From assembly GCF_964355755.1 (NCBI RefSeq), contig NC_092675.1, positions 28,430,912 to 28,494,911 of the forward strand: 64,000 nucleotides of DNA, in the 5' to 3' direction. Positions 16,998 to 63,638 of this stretch are shown here, one piece after another (position 1 is the first letter of the stretch; each line of letters begins with the position of its first letter). Source of the DNA: Antedon mediterranea (taxonomy: Eukaryota > Animalia > Echinodermata). A program made the translations under genes and the position numbers. Under the pieces are notes generated by a model. It did not search any database. It had not been told where the DNA came from and saw nothing but the letters and a program-made list of their open reading frames with translations.

Positions 16998-17286
16998 ATG
17001 GTGATTGTGAAAGCGTGTGTGGTGTTTTTATTCACAACCATGATAGCCGCTGCAGAGTTTACGGCATTGCAGGAAATTCTCTCAGGAAAATCAGCGGTAA
17101 GCTCCAAGTCGGACGGCCTGTTTGCAAGCCTTCAGGCGAAAATCCCAGCAGACCCTGTTGGCCGATCAAGGAAAGACAAATCTAACAAACCACATCGCTA
17201 CATTCTACGGATATTGGAACCTCTCGTAAAAAACGATACGGCGCTAGAAAAAGGCAGTACCGTATACAGTTTTGCAGCCGAAAAAA
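16998..17286 (+). CDS. BMP3: BMP3/GDF10-like TGF-beta ligand, coding exon 1 (signal peptide and start of prodomain)
   Basis: Hydrophobic signal peptide MVIVKACVVFLFTTMIAAA. GSTVYSF resembles the BMP prodomain motif (G/A)NTVRSF. The exon ends at a GTAAGT donor (17287) in phase 1, matching the phase-1 acceptor at 44974/44975. Confidence 0.8.
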
Positions 17287-31442: not shown

Positions 31443-32283
31443 CAATTGTGTTCTTAATTCTAAATTGGTAACGTATTATTTTAGACCATATAACCCCAAC
31501 CCAACCTGCCATGATACAGGCATTATATGTGATACACACGAGATGCTGTATTGCGGAATTGTCCTATGATATTTGGACAACTATTGTTATTTTCGACATG
31601 GAACTGTCAATCATTATGAAGAACAGATGTGCCGTTACCACTTGATTTAGTTATTTTCACTAATAGGCCTTCCTGATCATTAATTAAAGTAATTAGTTCA
31701 TCTGACACAACAACACAAATTAAGATCATTGTATTAATTCAAAAAAATCACACAGAAATGTAACATGATATTTTGATTGTGATTTTTTGACAGTTCACTG
31801 AAATGCAAATGAACATGCCACACCTGGCCGCCAGTCATTTAAGCGTGGATAATCATGTATTGGCGCTTGTTGTTGAAATCACATTATTTTCCTCAACATT
31901 ATAAACTCAAAAGCCATTTTCTGTGTTTAGTGACCAATAGTTGACCAGAGCAATCTTATAAACATTACGGTATTACTTTTCTGTGGACTAAAACTATTAT
32001 TATTATTATGCAGTCGGAAGCTACACTATTTATTAACAAAATAATTATACATGTATTACTATAGACTTGCCCCAATAAGTAGTTATTTCGAGGCTGTTCG
32101 ATGTTTGTTTGAAATACAAGCTTAAGTAGTATACGTATGAAACGCCATATGTGCCGAAATATTCATCCTTTTACTAATATTAAGTCAAAACTCCGTCTGG
32201 AACCCAGACTATACTAGTATTACTAGGTCCATGGTCTAATATCAAATTAAAGTTATTTGATCATTTGAATATTCAGAGACAGT

Positions 32284-32786
32284 TGTAACTGCAGCCTACT
32301 TATAGGAGGCCCTCTAGAGTTCAAATAGATAAAAAGTGATAAGAGAGAATAAGACATTTTATAAGACATTTTTTATGACATAAAGTTTAGAGATAATCGT
32401 TGTTCAAAGTATCTTTACCATAGGCTCCAATAAGGCTACAAGGTATTTACACGTGGTTATTCATGTGATTGTAATTATAACTTATGACATGTATTTTTAA
32501 TTAGTTGAGTTTTACTTCATTGCTGAAAGCTAGCCCTAGGCCTTAGGGTATCATGTTCCCCGGCCCCATGAGTCAGACCTGTGCTTGTCTGCCTGTACGA
32601 TGATGATATGATTAGGCCTACATTGTAATGCTAATCTTTGTTTTATTATAGTTTTCACGGTGTTTATTCAAGTTGCTAATGATACTGTAATTTGTAGAGA
32701 TACAAGAGATAGTTCAGAGAATAAATAAAGGAACATCAGTATCTACAAAATTTGTAATTTATTTATGATGGACGCCTACGGTAACA
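32284..32786 (+). repeat. 5' LTR
   Basis: TGTAACTGCAG...CGGTAACA. Reads as identical to 35822..36324. Overlapping AATAAA signals at 32720-32729. Confidence 0.95.
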
Positions 32787-35700
32787 GTGAAAACTTAGCT
32801 GATGAAAACTCAATGAATCTAAGAGAACAGAGTGAGAGACGCCCTACAGCTAAGGCCCTGTCAATTAGCATTGCTACTGAAGTAAAACTGTTGAGTCAAA
32901 CTCAGAGAAAGGCTCAAGAAGCATCAAGTGAACTAGAAGATGTTTCAAGTGACGAATTTGAGATACAAACTGCATTATGCAAAGCTAAAGCTGCATTAAA
33001 GGAATATAGTGATGCTTGGTGCGTATTGAATAAATTGTATGCACAAGATAGAGATGGTATTCATCGCGAAGATCACCTGGAGAATGAGAACATATATCTC
33101 ACCATTACCAACTCCATCCAAGCTAGTATAACAAGCGCTATGGATAGGGCACATGCATTAGCCCTGGAGTGTCAAGCCTCAAAATCTGCAGCATCAAGGA
33201 GTTCATGTCGATCTATTGTTAGCATTAAAGCTCAAGCTGTGGCGAATGCTGCTGCAGCCAACAAAACTGCTCAATTTGCTGAAAAAATGGCTAAACAGAA
33301 AGCAGACCTTACAGCAAAGGAAGCTGAAATGGAAATTAAAAAAGCAGAAGCAAGGCTTGAAGAAATAAGGCGGGAAGCACAGCAAAGAACAGAACATGCC
33401 AAAGCTGAAGCAGAGTTCAAAGTTTTAGAGGCTAAACAAGCTGCAGCTGTAGAGAATGCACGAGTTGATGCAATTCAACAGGAAATTCAGAACGGATATG
33501 GAGAAATTATGACCACACCACACCAAACCTCAAATGATCATGCACTAAGGTTTTGCAACCTAACCAAACCTCAACCTCTAATGACACAGACACAAGCAAC
33601 AACAGCCCAACCGACAATGCCTCAAAATCAATCTAGCAGTACCACAGACTTAAACGCTTTAGCAGAAGCCTTTTCTTCAGCCTTCAGTATGAACCGCATA
33701 CCAGCACCAGAGCCACCAATATTCGATGGCGATCCTCTTAAGTACTATGATTGGAACGCATCCTTTAGATGGTTAATCGAAAATAAAGGAATTTCTAAGG
33801 CAGACAGAATTCACTACCTTAAGAGATACATAGGAGGCCCAGCAAAGGAAGTTGTCAGTGGATACTTTCTGCTACAAGGTGAACATGCTTATGAAAACGC
33901 TAAAGCAGTTTTAGAAAAAAGATATGGAAATCCATTTATAGTTTCCGAAGCATTTAGAGACAAATTAGACAGCTGGCCAAGGATTCAAGCAAGAGATTAC
34001 AATGGCCTTAGGCGACTCTCTGACTTTCTGAACCAATGCAACATAGCAATGAAGGAAATGAAAGGCTTAGAAGTTCTTAATGACAGCAGAGAAAACCGGA
34101 AAATTCTTCAAAAATTACCAGATTGGTTAGTGAATAGATGGCGAAGAAACGCAGTGAGCGCTATGCAAATCAAGGGTAGTTATCCAACATTCAATGACTT
34201 TTCCACATTTTTGACGACCGAAGCCGAAATTGTTTGCGATCCTGTTACCTTAATACCAGAAAATGAAACAAAATTCACAGAAAAAAGTTCAAGATATCGA
34301 AACCAATCTCAAACGCTAGCCACCAGTATCAGTGCAATGCCATCATGCTTCATGTGTAAAATGAATAACCATCACCTAAGTGACTGCAGAGCGTTTGCCA
34401 GAAAACCTGAAACCGAAAAACAGCAATACATCAAGCAAAATGGTCTATGCTTCAGCTGCTTACAACATGGCCATGTGTCAAGGAACTGTAACCAGAAAAG
34501 TATTTGTAAAATTTGCCAAAGGAGACATCCAACAAGTCTCCATGTAAAGGAGAGAGATTCAGCTCACGAGATAACTGAAGCACAAATGCAGGTTATCAAG
34601 TTACAAGAGACCGTCACTAAGAAAGAGACACTATTGCAGGATTTAGCCACAAAGTATGCTAAGAAAAATGATGAGTTAGCAGAAATTAAAGAAGAAAGAG
34701 ATCTGGTTAAAGGGAAATCAGATGACGAACTTGCTTATATGAACAAACAACTTCAACAGGCTGTAGCGTCTAATCCATCTAACATTAGTGAACAATTGGC
34801 TTTACTACATGCAGAACTTGATGAGACTTATGGACAACAAATTGTTATGATTAAGTCACAGCTGCAGGAAAGACACCAGAATGAAATGCAAGAATTGCAA
34901 AAGAAATGTGAAGAAGATGCTGAAACTAACAACAAAATTAGAGATGCATTAGAACAGAATTTAAAGGAACTCCAAGACCAATTAGATGAGAAAGAGATGG
35001 ACTTAGAGGCTTGTCAGAACATCCAAAAAGACTTCGAAGATCAAGTTGCACTTCTTAATAATCACAACAAGGAACTAACAGAGAAAATGGAGAAAGAAGA
35101 AGATGTAACTTTGCAACTTCATCGAGAGCTTGATGAAGCTAACCAAGAAATAAAGAAGAAAACTTCAGAGTTAGATGAAAGAGTTACCCAGTTTATTGAT
35201 GAAAAGGAAAGATTGGAAAATGAATATCGGAAAAGGTTTGAAGATGAAAGTGCCCATCAAGAAGATATCCATCGCATTGCATTAAACCAACAGCGTTCTG
35301 AAGTTGTTGCTGAAATTGATCGCAAAATGAAACCCAAAGTAGAAGAAGTTGAAGACCATTTCAAGGTTCAATTCTGTACTGAAAAATCGGACAAAGAGAA
35401 CGAATTTGTTCAAGAATTCCAGAACATTCGACAGCAGTTAGCAGAATCTCATGCAGAAGAGATTGAAGCTGTTACAAAGAAAATCACAGATGAATTAACT
35501 GAAAAGCATGAGATTATGCTAGAGGAGGAAACGAAAAAGCTCTTCAAAGGAATAAATGATATATCTGAAGAGAAGGTATCAACGGAGCAGAATCGGAATA
35601 AAGATTGGATTGAAAATCAAGGAAAAGAATTAAAGGAACAAATTGTAAATATAAAAGTCGAGCTTCAACAAGTGAACAAAAAGAATTCAAAAATACAAAC

Positions 35701-35809
35701 TGTTAACTTATTCTTTATAGTTTTGGTAAATATTGTTAATATACTTCCAGTTTTGCATTACTTGTGTTTATTCTGGCAAGGGTGGGAGTTAAGGTTAAAT
35801 CATAGATGA
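32765..35809 (+). CDS. BEL/Pao Gag fused to an AKAP9-like coiled coil with a hydrophobic C-terminal tail
   Basis: BEL/Pao gag core (PEPPIFDGDPLKYYDW...YLKRYIGGPAKEVV...LEKRYGNP...KLPDW). Three zinc knuckles at 34346-34543: CFMCKMNNHHLSDC, CFSCLQHGHVSRNC and CKICQRRHPTSLH. Then about 380 aa of E/K/Q/L-rich coiled coil. No protease D(S/T)G, RT YxDD or integrase motifs. Confidence 0.9.
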   Translation: MMDAYGNSENLADENSMNLREQSERRPTAKALSISIATEVKLLSQTQRKAQEASSELEDVSSDEFEIQTALCKAKAALKEYSDAWCVLNKLYAQDRDGIHREDHLENENIYLTITNSIQASITSAMDRAHALALECQASKSAASRSSCRSIVSIKAQAVANAAAANKTAQFAEKMAKQKADLTAKEAEMEIKKAEARLEEIRREAQQRTEHAKAEAEFKVLEAKQAAAVENARVDAIQQEIQNGYGEIMTTPHQTSNDHALRFCNLTKPQPLMTQTQATTAQPTMPQNQSSSTTDLNALAEAFSSAFSMNRIPAPEPPIFDGDPLKYYDWNASFRWLIENKGISKADRIHYLKRYIGGPAKEVVSGYFLLQGEHAYENAKAVLEKRYGNPFIVSEAFRDKLDSWPRIQARDYNGLRRLSDFLNQCNIAMKEMKGLEVLNDSRENRKILQKLPDWLVNRWRRNAVSAMQIKGSYPTFNDFSTFLTTEAEIVCDPVTLIPENETKFTEKSSRYRNQSQTLATSISAMPSCFMCKMNNHHLSDCRAFARKPETEKQQYIKQNGLCFSCLQHGHVSRNCNQKSICKICQRRHPTSLHVKERDSAHEITEAQMQVIKLQETVTKKETLLQDLATKYAKKNDELAEIKEERDLVKGKSDDELAYMNKQLQQAVASNPSNISEQLALLHAELDETYGQQIVMIKSQLQERHQNEMQELQKKCEEDAETNNKIRDALEQNLKELQDQLDEKEMDLEACQNIQKDFEDQVALLNNHNKELTEKMEKEEDVTLQLHRELDEANQEIKKKTSELDERVTQFIDEKERLENEYRKRFEDESAHQEDIHRIALNQQRSEVVAEIDRKMKPKVEEVEDHFKVQFCTEKSDKENEFVQEFQNIRQQLAESHAEEIEAVTKKITDELTEKHEIMLEEETKKLFKGINDISEEKVSTEQNRNKDWIENQGKELKEQIVNIKVELQQVNKKNSKIQTVNLFFIVLVNIVNILPVLHYLCLFWQGWELRLNHR

Positions 35810-35821
35810 TTTGGGTGGGAG

Positions 35822-36324
35822 TGTAACTGCAGCCTACTTATAGGAGGCCCTCTAGAGTTCAAATAGATAAAAAGTGATAAGAGAGAATAAGACATTTTAT
35901 AAGACATTTTTTATGACATAAAGTTTAGAGATAATCGTTGTTCAAAGTATCTTTACCATAGGCTCCAATAAGGCTACAAGGTATTTACACGTGGTTATTC
36001 ATGTGATTGTAATTATAACTTATGACATGTATTTTTAATTAGTTGAGTTTTACTTCATTGCTGAAAGCTAGCCCTAGGCCTTAGGGTATCATGTTCCCCG
36101 GCCCCATGAGTCAGACCTGTGCTTGTCTGCCTGTACGATGATGATATGATTAGGCCTACATTGTAATGCTAATCTTTGTTTTATTATAGTTTTCACGGTG
36201 TTTATTCAAGTTGCTAATGATACTGTAATTTGTAGAGATACAAGAGATAGTTCAGAGAATAAATAAAGGAACATCAGTATCTACAAAATTTGTAATTTAT
36301 TTATGATGGACGCCTACGGTAACA
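35822..36324 (+). repeat. 3' LTR
   Basis: Direct repeat of the 5' LTR, preceded by the PPT GGGTGGGAG (35813-35821) and followed by the TSD ACAGT. Confidence 0.95.
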
Positions 36325-39138
36325 ACAGTAACCTGTAGGTATAGGCTACATAATAATGTTGTTATGCATCGCTATGTACAAGTCCCCCGACGTGAATTTG
36401 TCAACACAAGGACCTTTCGCATTGACGGACCTAAGGGAAGCCAATGTCAAGTATAATAAAGACTAACCCCAGAGAAGCGAACGCGTATGACTCGGTCAAG
36501 TACTATCGAGGATGGATGCTAAAAAGAGAGCTATACTCCCCAGGAAGGTTACTAACAAGCTGGATCTGGTATTTGTCCATTTTTATCTTTTCTCATTTTC
36601 TATAATAAAATCAATTACCACAGTTATAGTGGTACATAAACACTGGCACTTGTATAGTTATATAGTTGAATTCAATTTCCTTCTCAATTTATAAAATGCT
36701 CTTTTTAACCTCATTGACGCTTACCATTTGCTCAAGGTTTACATTTTAAAATGTTGCCTGGCTGATTTTCTTTGATAATGTTTGAGGAAGAGGAGTATAG
36801 TTAACCCTGGCGTTTTTAAACAGTTTAAGGTCAACCCAAGTTTGTTTGTCACACCAGTACTCTGGAATCTATTCTCAATCTTGTTTAGTTTGTACTTGTA
36901 AAAACGCAGGGTTGGTGAAATATGTCCATTATAGGGCCATGGTTTGTCCATAAGTTTTTTTTGTTCACAATTGAGGGCACTGTTGTTCAATTAGGGGCTT
37001 TTTTAGGATAAGAAGCGCCCTCTGTGATTTGCGTTGTAGAAACTTTTATGTGTTTGGCCTGGGGTCATCGTACTAAATAATGCTATGCTACCTATATAAT
37101 AATTCTATTGATCACGATACGATTCAAATTGACTAAATACTTGTAAATGTAAATGTTTGATGTACCGCTGAGGTCGTACTGGGCAACAACATGGTCTCCC
37201 TTTATAACTTGTTCCATCTCTACAACTCGTGTATCATTGCCCATTACACTTTCTGATTACATGAACTTACACGTTAATAGCTTGACTTGTGGGCACATAC
37301 GCGTGTGTTTGTTAACGTCGGGTCTTGTTTGTCACTGTCAGACGATGTACCAGTCTCATCGCATTCAATAATAATATTTTTGATAATAAACAGCATCTGG
37401 GAGTTTGTGCATTCCATTACAAAATAAAATTATAGTACAACATTCATGTATATTATGATTGTACTTTATGTTTTCTGACAAATATAATATTTGTTCTATA
37501 GTTCGTATAAAAAGTGAACATTGCAACATAGGATTGTCAACTCCACAAACTGTTAAAACTAGGTGTCTATGTATGCATTATATCCAGCCAGTTACGAAAT
37601 CAAACACATTTCCTCAAAATGCTCATCAAAATTACTATAGATCAATTATCAATTATTTTTTACTTAAACCTATAATAAATTTAAGTAATTTTTAATTTTT
37701 TTTTAAATGACTTATAAAGGTTTCGACTTTTTGTCAGATTATAATCAAACTGGATCAAACACTATGCTAATCCACATCACTGTAAGTCAGCGAACAGGAG
37801 TTTTCCAAAATATATTTGCGAACCCAATTTAATATTTGTATGATAGCTGTTTATATAAAATGTCACTCAAAGGGCTGTAAGTCTATGTTGTTCTAACAAT
37901 ATTTGCCTAGAGAGTTTCCTGTAGGCCTAATTAGTTTACTGAAGGACACGCTTGGTGAAATCTAAATAAAACGGATAAAATAGAACGCATTTTTTACTTC
38001 TGTTTACTAGATTCCTTTAGTACACGAACACGAATTATGAGTACATTCGAGAAAGTGATGTTCAAGACAAAACAAAAGCATTTGCGTACTGTTTAGTATC
38101 ATTCGGGTAATAAAATGCCCCTTTCTGCTCATTCGTGGCTGTTGTTTTTATAGGCCCTAATCACGTCACATCTAAAAAAGCGCAGAATATTATAACAAAA
38201 CTACACACCTGTTATCTTTCACTCAGGAATTTAATAGTTTTAAATTTTATCATTTCATCAAACAATTAGGTAAAGTAGACACGATTACCACGAGCACTAT
38301 TATTCGCCTGCTTAGCATCATAACACAACAAAGTAGCGATCGAATAAAACCCACAGAAATTCTTTGATTGACAATCAACTAAATAAACGTCGGCGTTAAT
38401 TTCCCGCAAAGTACAGATTAAACAAACCAACCGTCATTTAAAATATATACGTGGAAAAACATTGACTCAGTGATACTAAATTTTTCCCCTTAGCACACCC
38501 CTTATCTCCTTATTCGATAAATTGGAGAAGACTTTTTTAGTTGACTCTAATTTTTTCGTCTAGCTTGCGGTCAATGGAGCAAGGTCTTACGATTTTGTTT
38601 CTTTTTAAAACCCCTTGGCAGGTGGGAAGCAGCGGGTAAATTGATTTTAATACAAACGGGCAAATATCGTCGAGAACACAATTGGATGGCGGCAGAGATG
38701 AAGCCATGTTTTCGGCAAATCTGTCTCCATAAAAGAAACTCGTTACAGTCTTGTTTAGTTCCTCTGCACTACGATAGGGTAGTTGATTCGTACCTGTTAA
38801 GCTTTATCATCCAGTATTTTGGCGCATTTATTATATGCATTTTTTATTATGATTATGCTTAGCAGATTCTTGGTACTGTATCAACATCTATAGGCAAATT
38901 CCGTGATACATCATAACATGTGGTTCTCATTCGACGCCTACATCCTAATACAGTACAGTACAATAAGCTTCCCTATTTCAGAATCCTGGATCAGCCACTG
39001 TAGTCAGGGGGAAAATGGCAAAAGTTTTCCTACTTTCTAGGATTTTTATCAGATAATCTATAACATGACCACATTGCTAATTTTGCCATTTTTTGATCTG
39101 ATTGATAAAATTCATAACCCAAAACAAAGCCTTTTCAT

Positions 39139-44974: not shown

Positions 44975-45930
44975 AATCTACTTGCACTGACAAGCACATG
45001 TTTCTTATAAAGTTGAAACCAAAAGGCGAAAAGAAGAATATCCTTAAATCTGAGCTTTACATAAGTAATCGAAAACCGCTACAACCGTCGCAATTTAAAA
45101 ATACCAACATGAGCGAACTTGTAATAATGGCCTACGATGTACAAGATAATGACAACTGCGCCAAAATCGGTACGTTTTCGTTAGCTGAGTTTGGGGGCGA
45201 AGGATGGCAAACGCTTGACATAACATCACTTCTTTCACAACTCACCGAAGAATTAACGAAGAAAGCAGTATTGGGACTAACATTCAAAGTAAAAAGCAAA
45301 AGGTCTGATGAAAATAACGAAATTGATTATAAAAACGACTGGTGGAATAAGTTGATGTCAAAGAAAAAAATGTTGCAGAAGCGAGGACGACCATTTATTC
45401 TTGTTCACGTAGAAGACAAGTCTGTGGATACATCCCTGACGTCACCACCATTTCAACGATTATCAGAAACCGTGACAAGCGCCATCAACAGTCGATCAGC
45501 AAGGAGTGTTTTTGTTCCAAACCCAAAGCCAATCAACGAATCAAATTATTACACGTATAATATGATGTCCAACGAATATCCAATGGCACCTGTTGAAGTT
45601 GTAAAAGCACCAGAACAAAAATTTCCCGAATTTCTTGACCAAAATTCCAGGCGAAGGAAAGAGAGAAAAAACAAAAAACGTAAAAACAGGCGAAAGAATG
45701 GAATTGCTCCTTTTGGTGGTGAAGATACCAAACCTTTATCAAATGATGCAGAACAAATTGTTAATCTGCAAAAGACTGAAAATGAAGGATACAAAAACAC
45801 AGAAGGACTATGCTCAGTTAGAAAATTGAGTGTTAATTTCAAAGATCTTGGTTGGGATAATTTTGTGATTGCTCCAGACTTGTTCACACCTAACTATTGT
45901 GCAGGCTCCTGTCCGTATCCACTTCAAAAG
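44975..45930 (+). CDS. BMP3: BMP3/GDF10-like ligand, coding exon 2 (prodomain, furin site, first half of cystine knot)
   Basis: Acceptor tttctttcag|aa. Prodomain motifs NILKSELY, GWQTLDIT and RPFILV. RSAR furin site at 45493-45504. SNEYP resembles NNELP of vertebrate BMP3. Mature domain CSVRKLSVNFKDLGW...IAP...YCAGSCPYPLQK ends at AAG|GTAATA in phase 0. Confidence 0.88.
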
Positions 45931-46325: not shown

Positions 46326-46530
46326 GTCAACTGTTAAAAGTAACTTTTACGCTCATTTGTTTTTGTTTTTAATATTTATTGCTATCCATAATATCCACAA
46401 TATCATAAATTTTTTTTTTAAATTAACAAAATCATACAGATACCCTACCACCACTACAAAGCGTATACTACCGGCATTCTTAATTATTATACTTATTTAT
46501 ATCTTCGAAATATTTCTTCTTTTTTTTTAG

Positions 46531-46716
46531 TCACTGAATCCTACAAATAACGCACTGATCTTGGGCATGGTGAAGTCAATGGGGATCCCAGTGCCGGCGC
46601 CTTGCTGTGTACCAACCAAAATGTCATCAATCAGTATTGTATATTTGGACGATGAATCGAATGTATCACTGCGCAACTATCCAAACATGCAAGTGGAGTC
46701 GTGCGGTTGTATGTAG
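46531..46716 (+). CDS. BMP3: BMP3/GDF10-like ligand, coding exon 3 (C-terminal cystine knot; absent from the ORF track)
   Basis: After a strong polypyrimidine-AG acceptor it reads SLNPTNNALILGMVKSMGIPVPAPCCVPTKMSSISIVYLDDESNVSLRNYPNMQVESCGCM*. The K|SL intron position matches vertebrate BMP3 (PMPK|SLKPSNHA, recalled). Spliced CDS is 1431 nt = 476 aa plus stop. Confidence 0.9.
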   Translation, partial: SLNPTNNALILGMVKSMGIPVPAPCCVPTKMSSISIVYLDDESNVSLRNYPNMQVESCGCM

Positions 46717-49314
46717 CCTGCGCATGGATATCGCGACTCTGCAGTTTTCATTATTGGACAACCATAAGAGAGATTTCTCTCTGCAGTATCAAAATCTACA
46801 TGGACACAATGTTTTCTAGTGCAGAGCCTGATATCTTCAACAGTATTACAATTTATATTGATCTGTTAGAAAAAGTTACCTCATAAAATAAACTGGAAGT
46901 GCTTAAGTCGATGTGCGCATGTCTGTTGTGACCGTTTGTCACTGCCATATTGTATCGCTTTGTCCTAATCTCCAACTCCATCTCTGTGTGTTTCTATATT
47001 TAAGATTTTAAAATAAATTTAATTATTATGAAGTAGATTCTTTATAAAAAAAATATGTTAAAAGTGCTTATTAATTTAAATTATCAGCATTGCCCAGTTT
47101 GTCGCACTTTTGTGAAAACTAAATTGTATGTATAACTGCTAAAATTTAACTTATTTCAAAAACACTTATATAATAAATTTGTACAAGTGATATTGTATTA
47201 TGTAATAAGTACACTCTCCGATATGAAAATAAATGTATTAAATTTGTACACAAGAAAAAACATTTTATAACTTGTAATAAAAAATTAAAGAAAATTGTAT
47301 AAAATGCTAAGGCTTACTTCTGTAATTTAGCGCCTTTTATGGAATCTAACAAAAATGTGCTTTTTGTCTAGGGTGTAACAATGAAGGTATTACAATAGGC
47401 CAACTTTAAATATCTATAACAGGTTTAAATAGCCTATTTAGTTTATTGAGAGGACTACCGTATTTCATGGAAAAGAAAAAATAGAAAAATTTTTAGGTAA
47501 ATTTAAATATTGTAAATTGTATGAACTATAAATAAATAATGACGTAATCCTTGTAAATGATCGAGTGAGTTTTTTATGTTGCCTACGACTATACCCACCA
47601 ATATTGTTTTTCAATGCAAATTTATCAACAAAAACAAAAATTGTTTCTTAGAATTATAAGCTTCGAAAGTTTATACTGTAGCATATTTATAAATAAAATG
47701 AATTTTAACAATGTAAGTCTGAATCGATTGTGGGTGGGTGATAGAGTTATTGATTCAGCTGCTATGTGATTTGATGAACGAAATATGTAATATGGAGTAA
47801 AGAATCTAGAATTGAAAGTATTTGTATATGATAGCATTAGATACATTTGAAATTATCGAAGTATAAAAACTACTAAGATATTTATTCCAACGACAGTTTA
47901 GATTTAGGTATATATTATATACTTATTTGATTGTAATAAAATTTAATCCTTTGTCTTGTAAATTGTTGTTTCTATTTTCTCTTTTTTCTTCTTTAAAAGT
48001 TGAGATCCACCATAGTGACAAAATTTGGCAAAACTATCTCATTTTACCCATCTAGAATCTAAGCATTATTGTTATGCATCATTTCCGAAAAATTTAGCAT
48101 GATGTTAAATAGCAATTTTGTATGCGTATTTTGGAAAAGTAATATTATATTTTTAAAATCTTTAGCATAATTTCCAGTCAAATCTAACATTTGTCGAAAA
48201 CACAATAACCCATTTTTATGTCAAATCTAGCATTTGTCGAAGATACAACTTTTTTTTGATAGATCAGACCTCTTGTACAATGAAGGTATTGATGAAAATT
48301 GGGCATTTATATCAAGTTTCAGTACGTCTAGCATAATTGTGTGCTGTATCTGACATTATCTGTCCAATCACTGGCCACCCTGGATTCCACATAAGCACTA
48401 TTTGATTTTGTTTATCTTCTAGTAACTTCAACGGGACAATGAAACAGCCTGGTTTACAAGTATTGGTGAATCCAAAAATGAATTGATTCCATGTGCGCAT
48501 GCGTTAATAAATGTAGCATGAACCTCGATCACCACCGGGACCTTGTCTTTTCTCGCTTTCTTTTGATAAGTGGTTCGGAATTGTTACGGCATGCAGCATT
48601 ATAACAACCGATTAAACTAACTCACAGACACTAAGATCTATATACATTTATCATCGCGTGTCAACTATTAAAATGTGTGTTCCTCGTGCGGAACAACTAA
48701 ATCAAATTATTGTTGAAGTTAAAGTTTAGTGCGTGTTCCGACACAACGTATTATTAGATCTGCCGTCTGTTGTAATTGCCTTGTTTAAATCAAACTCATT
48801 CAACATTAAGATCTATTTCAACCCTAATGGAATTATAATGTAGGCTACAAATTGATTGGTAATTCATCTTAAATTCATCATCTGTTTACAATCGAATTTT
48901 AATTGCTAGAAATTTAGACATTTTTTCACAATCGGAAAACCAAACGTCTGAAACTTTTGAATTGTGACCAGGATATCAGTACATTGAATAGTATAGTTTA
49001 TTTGTAGATCTAGAAAACTCAGATATATTTGAGATCCGAGTTTTCTAGATCTGAGTTTCTAGGCACCCTATAGTTTACGTTCTTTCCTCAGTTTCAAAAT
49101 GTCAATTTGACTGCGCCACTTTATTTGCTATTTTCACATCCTCAAATTCCAATTATTAATTCAAAATTTTCAGATACATTATATTAAGATGTCATATTTA
49201 TTTCACCACCAGACATTATCTAAAATGAAACCTTGTTCGGATACTGAATCATTTCGAGTGACTTCGGTATTTACAAAACATTTTTTATAATAAAACACAG
49301 GGAACACTTTCTTT

Positions 49315-61871: not shown

Positions 61872-62083
61872 CTGCATAAAGAACAAAAGAAAAATCTTAT
61901 AGAATTTTTAAGCAAAAGTGTTTTATTGACAGTGGGTTTTGACAATTTCAAATCTTAACCATTTAATCTGGCAGTAATTATTCCATTCTTTGTGTTAGTT
62001 ATATGTTTAAGTTTTGAATCAATTTATATTTACAATATCTTTAACTAAATAAACCTCTGCAAAGATCACTACATTATACTTAC

Positions 62084-62782
62084 TATTCCACTTGCAATTA
62101 CAGTTGTAACAGAGGGGGTTGTCTTTGACGTTGTTACCAATCCTTTTATTATCACCTGCTGGGGTCGTGGCGGAGCTGGGGCTATTTTCTTTGGTGTTGT
62201 GACTGATGATTTCACAGGACTCTTAATTTGTGTAGAGCTGGAGGTGATGGTTTGACCAGCTATAAGTTTTGACATTGCACTACTTGATATTACAATGCTT
62301 TTGTTTAGTAGACTGCCCTGAGTGACTGTAATCACCTTTACCGGTGAACCTGGAGTCAATAATTTACCATCAACTGTTTGTAAAATTCCCGACGTTAACT
62401 TTGGTGTGGTACCAGCAACCGACACAATCTTATTTGTGGTAGGGTTTTTAGTAATGATTACTTTTGTGAGTACCTGATTCTGTCCAATTGATGGAGGGGG
62501 ACGTTTTAAAATAGCCTGAACGGCAGCTGACGTTGCAGTTGGATTTATACTTGATACGGTAACCACTGGCTTAGCAGGAGCTAACGATATGGGAATAACA
62601 TTTGTTTGTAAGTTTGGAGCTGATAGTACAATTGTCTGTCCTTTACTTGTAGTGATCACTTGACCAGTCTTTCCAGCTATACTGATAGTCTGGCCCTGCG
62701 AGGCAGCTGCAGCGATGGTTGTAATAGTCGCTGCTTCCATTTTGCTTTTGCTTTGACCACTGCCACTAGATGAGTCTTCCAT
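62084..62782 (-). CDS. LIN54: LIN54 (tesmin/CXC, MuvB/DREAM subunit) coding exon 1
   Basis: Low-complexity T/S/V/I/K/P N-terminus. ATG at 62782, upstream acceptor catag| at 62844, GTAAGT donor in phase 0. Confidence 0.8.
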
Positions 62783-63638
62783 GATATAATATCTTTTAAT
62801 TTAACGATTTGTGTTTCATTAAAAAAATTGACAGCAGTACATTCCTATGAGTACAAAGAAAATTGGAAATAAAGAATTTAAATGTTAAAAACAATGAGTT
62901 TGCATTCAGTATTGTGCAGTACAGTAGTGCAGTTACAATACCAAAAACTGGAAAAATTCAATTTAGGTACTGTACACTACATTTAATGGTTTTATATAAT
63001 AAGCACAAATAATTACTAAAGTCCCAGAGAAGGAGCAAATGTTTTTTTATACTACTAGTATTAACTTAGCAAAAAACAATAAGATAGAGAGGTAGAATAG
63101 TGTTTCTAATTAAAGCTGAAGTCTCATAAACCAAGAGTTGATGGAGAGTTTACCATCGCTCTATGTATGTCTGTATGTACAGTACTTATTGTGGACAAAA
63201 ACAAAGACTTTTTTTTGTTTTTTAGGATGACACAGCACTGCACACAGAATGTTAACTGCAAGTTTTTCAGCTGCTATGCTTATACGTGTTTTATAATTAA
63301 TATGTTTTTAAAATAATAACCATTTAGGCCTAAATTTCTTTAATTGTTTAATGTGTGCATACATTTTTTCTAGGCCTAGGCAAGGTCCTACACCACCTAC
63401 ACAACCACGACCGAGCTGTGTGGAATGACACACCGAAACCCGTGTTGACAATATCCGCGATCGGGAGGGTTTATATCGTGCCTCAGTTTCACACATATTT
63501 TTACATTTTGTATTAAAATAAAACACACAAACACATAATGTATAAATACCTCAATAGCTATATGTCTTACCTAAAGTATATTTTATATAAAATCGTTCTT
63601 TGGAAGGGAGTTTTGGGCTGATGATTTGGTGAAATTTG

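Follow-up and report, generated by a model that had tools for sequence, protein, structure and literature searches.

The window analysed here, a 64-kb stretch (64,000 nucleotides) of contig NC_092675.1 of Antedon mediterranea, contains at positions 32284–36324 a chimeric retrotransposon of the BEL/Pao type. Between its two long terminal repeats (LTRs) lies a single reading frame in which a complete Gag is followed, in the place of the pol enzymes, by a coiled coil that homology assigns to the N-terminal part of a host protein of the AKAP9/pericentrin family. The insertion is recent, since its LTRs are identical, its target-site duplication is intact and an empty allele exists. The chimera is a real, polymorphic family, which is probably multi-copy. 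On balance, we favour the reading that this is a young family mobilised in trans, in which the coiled coil is a passenger.

Structure of the element

The features of the element are listed below, in positions of the window.

32279..32283, + strand: left target-site duplication, ACAGT (the empty site skips the element and one duplication, 4046 bases)
32284..32786, + strand: 5' LTR, 503 bp, TG...CA, containing AATAAA (32720) as well as the first ATG (32765) of the frame
32765..35809, + strand: single frame of 1014 codons (Gag, captured coiled coil and read-through tail)
32765..34556, + strand: BEL/Pao-type Gag, residues 1–597, with DUF1759 at residues 320–463 and three Cys-His knuckles at residues 528–593
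34557..35695, + strand: captured N-terminal coiled-coil fragment of the host AKAP9/pericentrin-family gene, residues 598–977 (3' end from depth arithmetic)
35696..35809, + strand: 37-residue read-through of the T-rich 3' region of the element, hydrophobic at about residues 979–1003
35813..35821, + strand: polypurine-tract-like GGGTGGGAG, adjoining the 3' LTR, with a second copy at 35780
35822..36324, + strand: 3' LTR, with the same sequence as the 5' LTR
36325..36329, + strand: right target-site duplication, ACAGT

Much of this anatomy had been read from the letters alone in the original prediction, and it holds: the LTRs match at 503 of 503 bases, the duplication is intact on both sides, one uninterrupted frame opens at the ATG within the 5' LTR and closes with the stop codon at 35807–35809, and Gag ends at its third zinc knuckle, HPTSLH, at 34543. 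The polypurine tract, which had been called intact, is present, but it has one pyrimidine and occurs twice, and the sequence next to the 5' LTR, GTGAAAAC, lacks a TGG-type primer-binding site. The length given for the coiled coil, about 380 residues, fits its host-derived part (34557 to about 35695); after HPTSLH, 421 residues follow, the rest being the 37 residues of read-through and the junction codons. The list of open reading frames holds no env frame in the element, and there is no further copy inside the window.

The read-through tail reaches a 19-residue hydropathy of 2.2, and 3.3% of 5000 shuffles are equally hydrophobic and open, while 6.4% remain open as long. It is likely mere read-through, and a role as a membrane anchor is improbable.

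Gag and the loss of pol

DUF1759, a domain associated with BEL/Pao elements, is detected by Pfam in Gag with an E value of 2.4e-13. The Cys-His motifs start at residues 528, 562 and 581 and fit the published patterns of the triple Cys-His box, a hallmark of Pao/BEL elements (PMC554778). A single-sequence fold of the Gag core has a mean predicted local distance difference test score of 42.6. When metagenomes were scanned with Gag, 7 of 54 candidates were confirmed, of which one intact element, L001, is informative: it is a single frame with a similar Gag, also containing DUF1759, followed by protease (LLDTQS) and reverse transcriptase (YVDD) motifs. The two Gag proteins are 40.5% identical over residues 310–598 (E 1e-67), and the similarity ends at residue 598, which is the junction. 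The pol part of L001 has no match in the window (tblastn, E≤1), and Pfam and tblastn find no protease, reverse transcriptase, RNase H or integrase domain after Gag. This shows that pol is lost, with the break four codons past the last knuckle, and the element is filed as a non-autonomous derivative of BEL/Pao. The proposal that a host fragment has replaced pol in frame is borne out.

Identity of the captured coiled coil

A first search with the long protein returned the query alone. When the 420 residues that follow Gag were compared with 1.84 billion representative proteins, four proteins were returned, the query and three others, and none of the matches is a fusion of Gag to this region. Among the three is a Lytechinus protein of 1940 residues (P0004), named trichohyalin-like, whose first 450 residues match proteins of Asterias and Saccoglossus named "A-kinase anchor protein 9-like", both with a PACT domain. 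Despite its name, this Lytechinus protein itself seems to represent the N-terminal region of an orthologue of AKAP9/pericentrin.

Compared directly, the captured part is 35% identical to residues 266–539 of the Asterias protein over 283 residues (E 2e-28, 108 bits), and it matches residues 253–416 and 602–684 of the Saccoglossus protein, in this order. Coiled coils were controlled for: the reversed sequence scores 28.5 bits, 40 heptad shuffles at most 33.5 and the coil of Gag itself 19.6. With such a distance between 108 bits and the controls, we consider it sound, on homology, to regard residues 598–977 as derived from the N-terminal coiled coil of the PACT-bearing AKAP9/pericentrin family, in agreement with the AKAP9-like origin first suggested for it. 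The call is to the family, AKAP9 and pericentrin not being separated, and the comparison sequences are non-vertebrate.

The captured piece maps to residues 253–684 of relatives of 4800–5000 residues, that is, to under a tenth of the protein, and the C-terminal PACT domain is absent from the fusion according to Pfam. Other searches did not name the family: Pfam gave sub-threshold matches only for the coiled coil, the ESM Atlas returned generic coiled-coil clusters with no AKAP9 name, none of 139 candidates was confirmed in a metagenome scan with the coiled coil, and residues 160–235 and 330–383 of the captured part have no significant match when taken alone. In base composition the piece is 64% purine.

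A polymorphic, probably multi-copy family

Eleven sequencing runs were listed, of which five, from two studies, hold at least half of the words of the sequence. Four were aligned: X1 and X4, from one sample, X2, from the second study, and X8, which comes from a related organism and is the one run used of the six with a small share of the words. Contigs that join 32278 to 36325 occur in X1, in X2 and in X4, so that the empty site is seen in all three runs of the same organism and in both studies. In X2, a contig of 1833 bases covers 32757–34586, from which it departs at 15 bases and by an insertion of 3 bases; it crosses the junction between Gag and the coiled coil and reaches 43 bases beyond the last knuckle. 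Relative to the flank, the depth in the three runs is 10.5, 21.9 and 11.8 for gag and 7.6, 12.1 and 9.3 for the coiled coil, the high depth continuing across the captured part. Copy number cannot be equated with contig depth, and between X1 and X4 there is a twofold discrepancy; "about ten copies" is a rough figure. The empty site in two studies, the junction contig and a depth of 8–22 times the flank together establish that the family is real and polymorphic, and make it probable that it is multi-copy. The recent insertion proposed at the outset is supported.

An artefact in which the assembly joined a retrotransposon to a host exon is hardly credible. None of the contigs listed extends over the full element, but support for an artefact was not found; the junction is crossed by a contig of an independent study, the depth over the captured part is high, and LTRs and duplication are intact. 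This also disposes of the case, envisaged at the outset, of a single copy whose junction no reads would cross.

The copies are not uniform. Element contigs differ from the copy in the window by 0.5–0.8%, most family contigs carry an LTR that is 12 bases shorter (3' LTR, 35887), and some skip 209 bases inside the LTR (32440–32650), with GT..AG ends. The 90% protein cluster of the fusion has three member sequences. The element's own target-site duplication, the empty allele and the depth of 8–22 times the flank fit secondary retroposition as a non-autonomous element, in the sense of Tan et al. (2016). A domesticated gag is, on the contrary, fixed, shared and immobile; here an empty allele is present and no fusion is seen in the related organism. 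These observations bear on the idea that the fusion was retained for the benefit of the host, for instance by restricting the intact family through a dominant-negative Gag. Fusions of co-opted gag and host genes do exist, including a Bel-Pao gag-PEX14 fusion in fungi (PMC8321522), but with a polymorphic insertion, identical LTRs, an apparently multi-copy family and a fusion unseen in the related organism, we judge this explanation very improbable.

The source gene and a sister form

In X8, a contig of 6717 bases with a depth of 57 (the right flank is at about 60) matches 34557–35630, with differences at 59 positions and 18 gap letters. It adjoins neither a gag nor an LTR match, and X8 covers gag only in patches; from the bin depths, a second piece would extend to about 35695. 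The captured stretch lines up with the host-type contig in two collinear pieces, with a break at 35630|35631 that is compatible with an intron or with a deletion. This contig at the depth of the flank is likely the host source gene, and a second type of low-depth contig in the organism of the window would, in the same way, be its host gene; the parental gene would thus lie elsewhere. In X2, host-type contigs have a depth of 28–46 against 6 for the flank (23 against 25 in X4). This would fit RNA, but that X2 is RNA is a guess and we do not count it as expression; no run holding the sequence, among the 11 listed, is recorded as RNA.

The X8 contig differs from the window by 5.5%, which is close to the 4.5–5.0% of the flanks, while element contigs differ by 0.5–0.8%. 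Together with the lack of adjoining gag or LTR, this suggests that the capture probably took place after the two organisms had separated.

In X1, a sister form shares gag, leaves the chimera near 34558–34572 and rejoins it at 35690, without the captured part. Contigs of this type, which are marked by a 2-base insertion at 35716, occur in X1, X2 and X4 and reach 3.2, 9.0 and 1.5 times the flank in the three runs. The sister form may be the helper of the chimera. Host-type and sister-type matches seem to overlap at 34557–34558 (loosely to 34572) and at 35690–35695.

Proposed mechanism of the capture

We propose that two template switches during reverse transcription would have replaced the region after Gag, in frame, by about 380 host AKAP9/pericentrin codons. 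Host mRNA would have been packaged together with that of the element; the polymerase would have jumped onto it four codons past the last zinc knuckle, and returned about 130 bases before the 3' LTR. As both LTRs and the polypurine tract were kept, transcription of the chimera would still be possible, and an intact relative would provide the Pol that raised it in trans to roughly ten copies; the chimera's own RNA would be packaged with the help of its intact Gag. The frame would be open mainly because the family is young, and the coiled coil would most likely be a tolerated passenger.

Could the host fragment instead have entered a genomic copy at the DNA level, by break repair or ectopic recombination, and then spread by retrotransposition? 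Apart from the 18 gap letters, 1074 bases are collinear with the single X8 contig and could be one large exon, so that no intron loss is needed. On the contrary, the sense orientation, the in-frame join and the fact that pol was replaced rather than interrupted make up the pattern of template switching (PMC5131818), and an intron may have been lost at the 35630|35631 break. We regard entry as DNA as unlikely.

Selection on the captured part

Several observations weigh against the reading that we favour, a trans-mobilised family with a passenger coil. Capture of a host mRNA would imply an RNA intermediate, which is unproven as no intron loss is demonstrated, and mobilisation by the Pol of a helper would imply a helper with pol, and none is seen. 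The chimeric form is deeper than the sister form in all three runs. Last, differences in the coiled coil tend to be synonymous: 6 of 9 are (p 0.002–0.016, for a neutral share of 0.18–0.27), and when three possible host-allele differences are dropped, 4 of the 6 among element copies still are (p 0.012–0.051). For gag the count is 7 of 16 (p 0.03–0.13). This excess hints, but does not prove, that the protein is constrained and the coil not simply a neutral passenger.

These counts are drawn from an incomplete table: 40 rows out of 230, selected by the program, of which 25 are in frame, and 12 of 61 rows of insertions and deletions (of five differences in one X4 contig, three are in the table), with host alleles mixed into the same runs. 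The main-path contigs shown for the coiled coil have no gaps and no frameshift, so that the random frameshifts named at the outset as a refutation are not seen in them. Copies that differ by only about 0.5–0.8% are, on the other hand, expected to keep an open frame half of the time or more without selection: the chance of meeting no stop is 0.52–0.72 after 6–12 substitutions, insertions and deletions not being counted. Selection on the captured part is therefore only hinted at, and the proposal of a selected chimeric Gag is not established, as the synonymous excess comes from 6–9 sites and the frame may be open by chance.

It may still be that the origin is as we propose and that selection now maintains the captured coil within Gag. 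The coil would dimerise the protein, or tether Gag and its RNA to the Golgi, microtubules or the centrosome, and so improve packaging or delivery to the germline, giving the chimera an advantage over its sisters; we see this as possible, if rather doubtful. The synonymous excess and the contigs without frameshift agree with it. In human AKAP450, the first N-terminal coil (residues 159–463) dimerises and binds GM130, and residues 1–1029 bind p150glued and microtubules (PMC3105543), which overlaps with the captured piece by position only. Foamy virus Gag docks to dynein through a coiled coil (PMC7828637), and in flies a gypsy element holds an in-frame capture of the orthologue dPlp, which is present in 20 of 40 lines (PMC5131818). 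Set against this are the few sites, taken from 40 of 230 rows with host alleles among them, the youth of a family whose frame may be open by chance, the absence of any other Gag fused to this region among the representative proteins searched, and a purine-rich coiled-coil mRNA that may simply be captured more easily. A routing function of the coil is a plausible hypothesis. A bolder version, that LTR elements repeatedly gain long host coils on Gag because these help them, the Golgi- and microtubule-binding AKAP9 N-terminal coil routing or scaffolding the particles of a family that would then out-replicate its sisters, and that the capture of dPlp in flies and the origin of all five BLASTOPIA captures from coiled-coil or helical-bundle scaffold genes reflect the same selection, is more speculative still.

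For fragments captured by LTR elements in animals, usefulness is mostly an open question, and the published cases are few, short and low-copy. With a complete Gag, an apparent multiplication and, in the same genomes, what is likely an insert-free sister form, this family would allow selection to be measured directly. If the coil is neutral, the family is a clean but ordinary case of LTR gene capture. A fragment of AKAP9 tethered to Gag could also have a cost for the host, as such N-terminal fragments disturb the Golgi in human cells (PMC3105543).

Surroundings of the element

The window contains a TGF-beta-family gene (PF00019) on the + strand, at 16998–17286, 44975–45930 and about 46530–46719, exon linkage being inferred. 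Its first exon resembles a signal peptide and the splice sites match in phase 1, which suggests that the element likely lies in its first intron, of about 28 kb, in sense orientation. To the left of the element, at 32112–32211, a short repeat of very high copy number reaches contig depths of tens to hundreds of thousands in all four runs aligned. A frame of 243 codons on the − strand (62069–62800), of low complexity, rich in T, V, K and P and without a Pfam match, is probably a host exon.

Comparison with known systems

The closest precedent is the LTR-mediated retroposition described by Tan et al. (2016) (PMC5131818), in which fragments of host mRNA replace part of the open reading frame of an LTR element by template switching, including in Pao elements; it was not named in the original prediction and lowers the novelty of the present case. 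Those captures are re-copied as non-autonomous elements, and in 14 of the 17 cases from flies the parental frame is preserved, possibly because they are young. Loss of introns, microsimilarity at the switch points and co-transcription from the LTR are further traits of such retrocopies. Shared with the present element are a host coding fragment in place of part of the internal frame, the retention of both LTRs, polymorphism, re-copying and an often in-frame join to residues of the element. In the fly retrocopy CG33957_r, in the element BLASTOPIA, 470 residues consist of 125 of the element, 248 of dPlp and 97 of the element, in frame, in 20 of 40 lines; CG33957 is dPlp, which is listed as the counterpart of AKAP450 (AKAP9) (PMC4659922). 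Here, Gag is kept whole (597 residues with three knuckles), where the BLASTOPIA cases have 125 residues; the element belongs to BEL/Pao, and depth suggests about ten copies. The same host gene family has thus been captured in flies by another superfamily, which makes a bias towards capture of coiled coils testable. A capture in the Pao element MAX, CG14796_r, is also reported (PMC5131818).

All five parents captured in BLASTOPIA are genes of a scaffold type. SMC2, CLIP-170 and dPlp are long coiled coils. Besides dPlp, the parents are c(3)G, which has a central coiled coil (PMC4857336), SMC2 (PMC5351981), a fly sequence aligned with CLIP-170 (PMC7337496) and the counterpart of IRSp53 (PMC5943408), and three of these five captures are fused in frame to the 125 element residues (tables of PMC5131818). 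This pattern of scaffold genes may reflect selection, or a bias of capture towards long, purine-rich germline mRNAs. By the word count of the literature search, the term "coiled-coil" does not occur in the main text of Tan et al. (PMC5131818). No report of an AKAP9–Gag BEL/Pao element was found in the literature searched, in which subscription journals are thinly covered.

Maize Bs1 is alike in being non-autonomous and in carrying captured host fragments, with 1–5 copies that share switch points; it is a plant element with three parental genes, as described in PMC5131818, whereas here there is a single animal gene. Acutely transforming retroviruses have a defective genome with a gag-onc fusion and depend on a helper. 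The comparison with them, made in the original prediction, stands as an analogy only: no envelope, infectivity or growth effect is seen here, and the captured piece is a structural coil. Relative to the AKAP9/AKAP450/pericentrin family, the captured piece is collinear with the N-terminal coil of the PACT-bearing proteins of Asterias and Saccoglossus, and has no PACT domain. Autonomous BEL/Pao elements, such as Sinbad (PMC554778) and L001, have the triple Cys-His box and DUF1759 in common with the chimera, whose Gag is about 40% identical to that of L001, and differ from it by their pol enzymes, which are absent here. Capture of genes by LTR elements is of a known kind, and the fusion of a BEL/Pao Gag to what its homology indicates is an AKAP9/pericentrin fragment is a further case of it.

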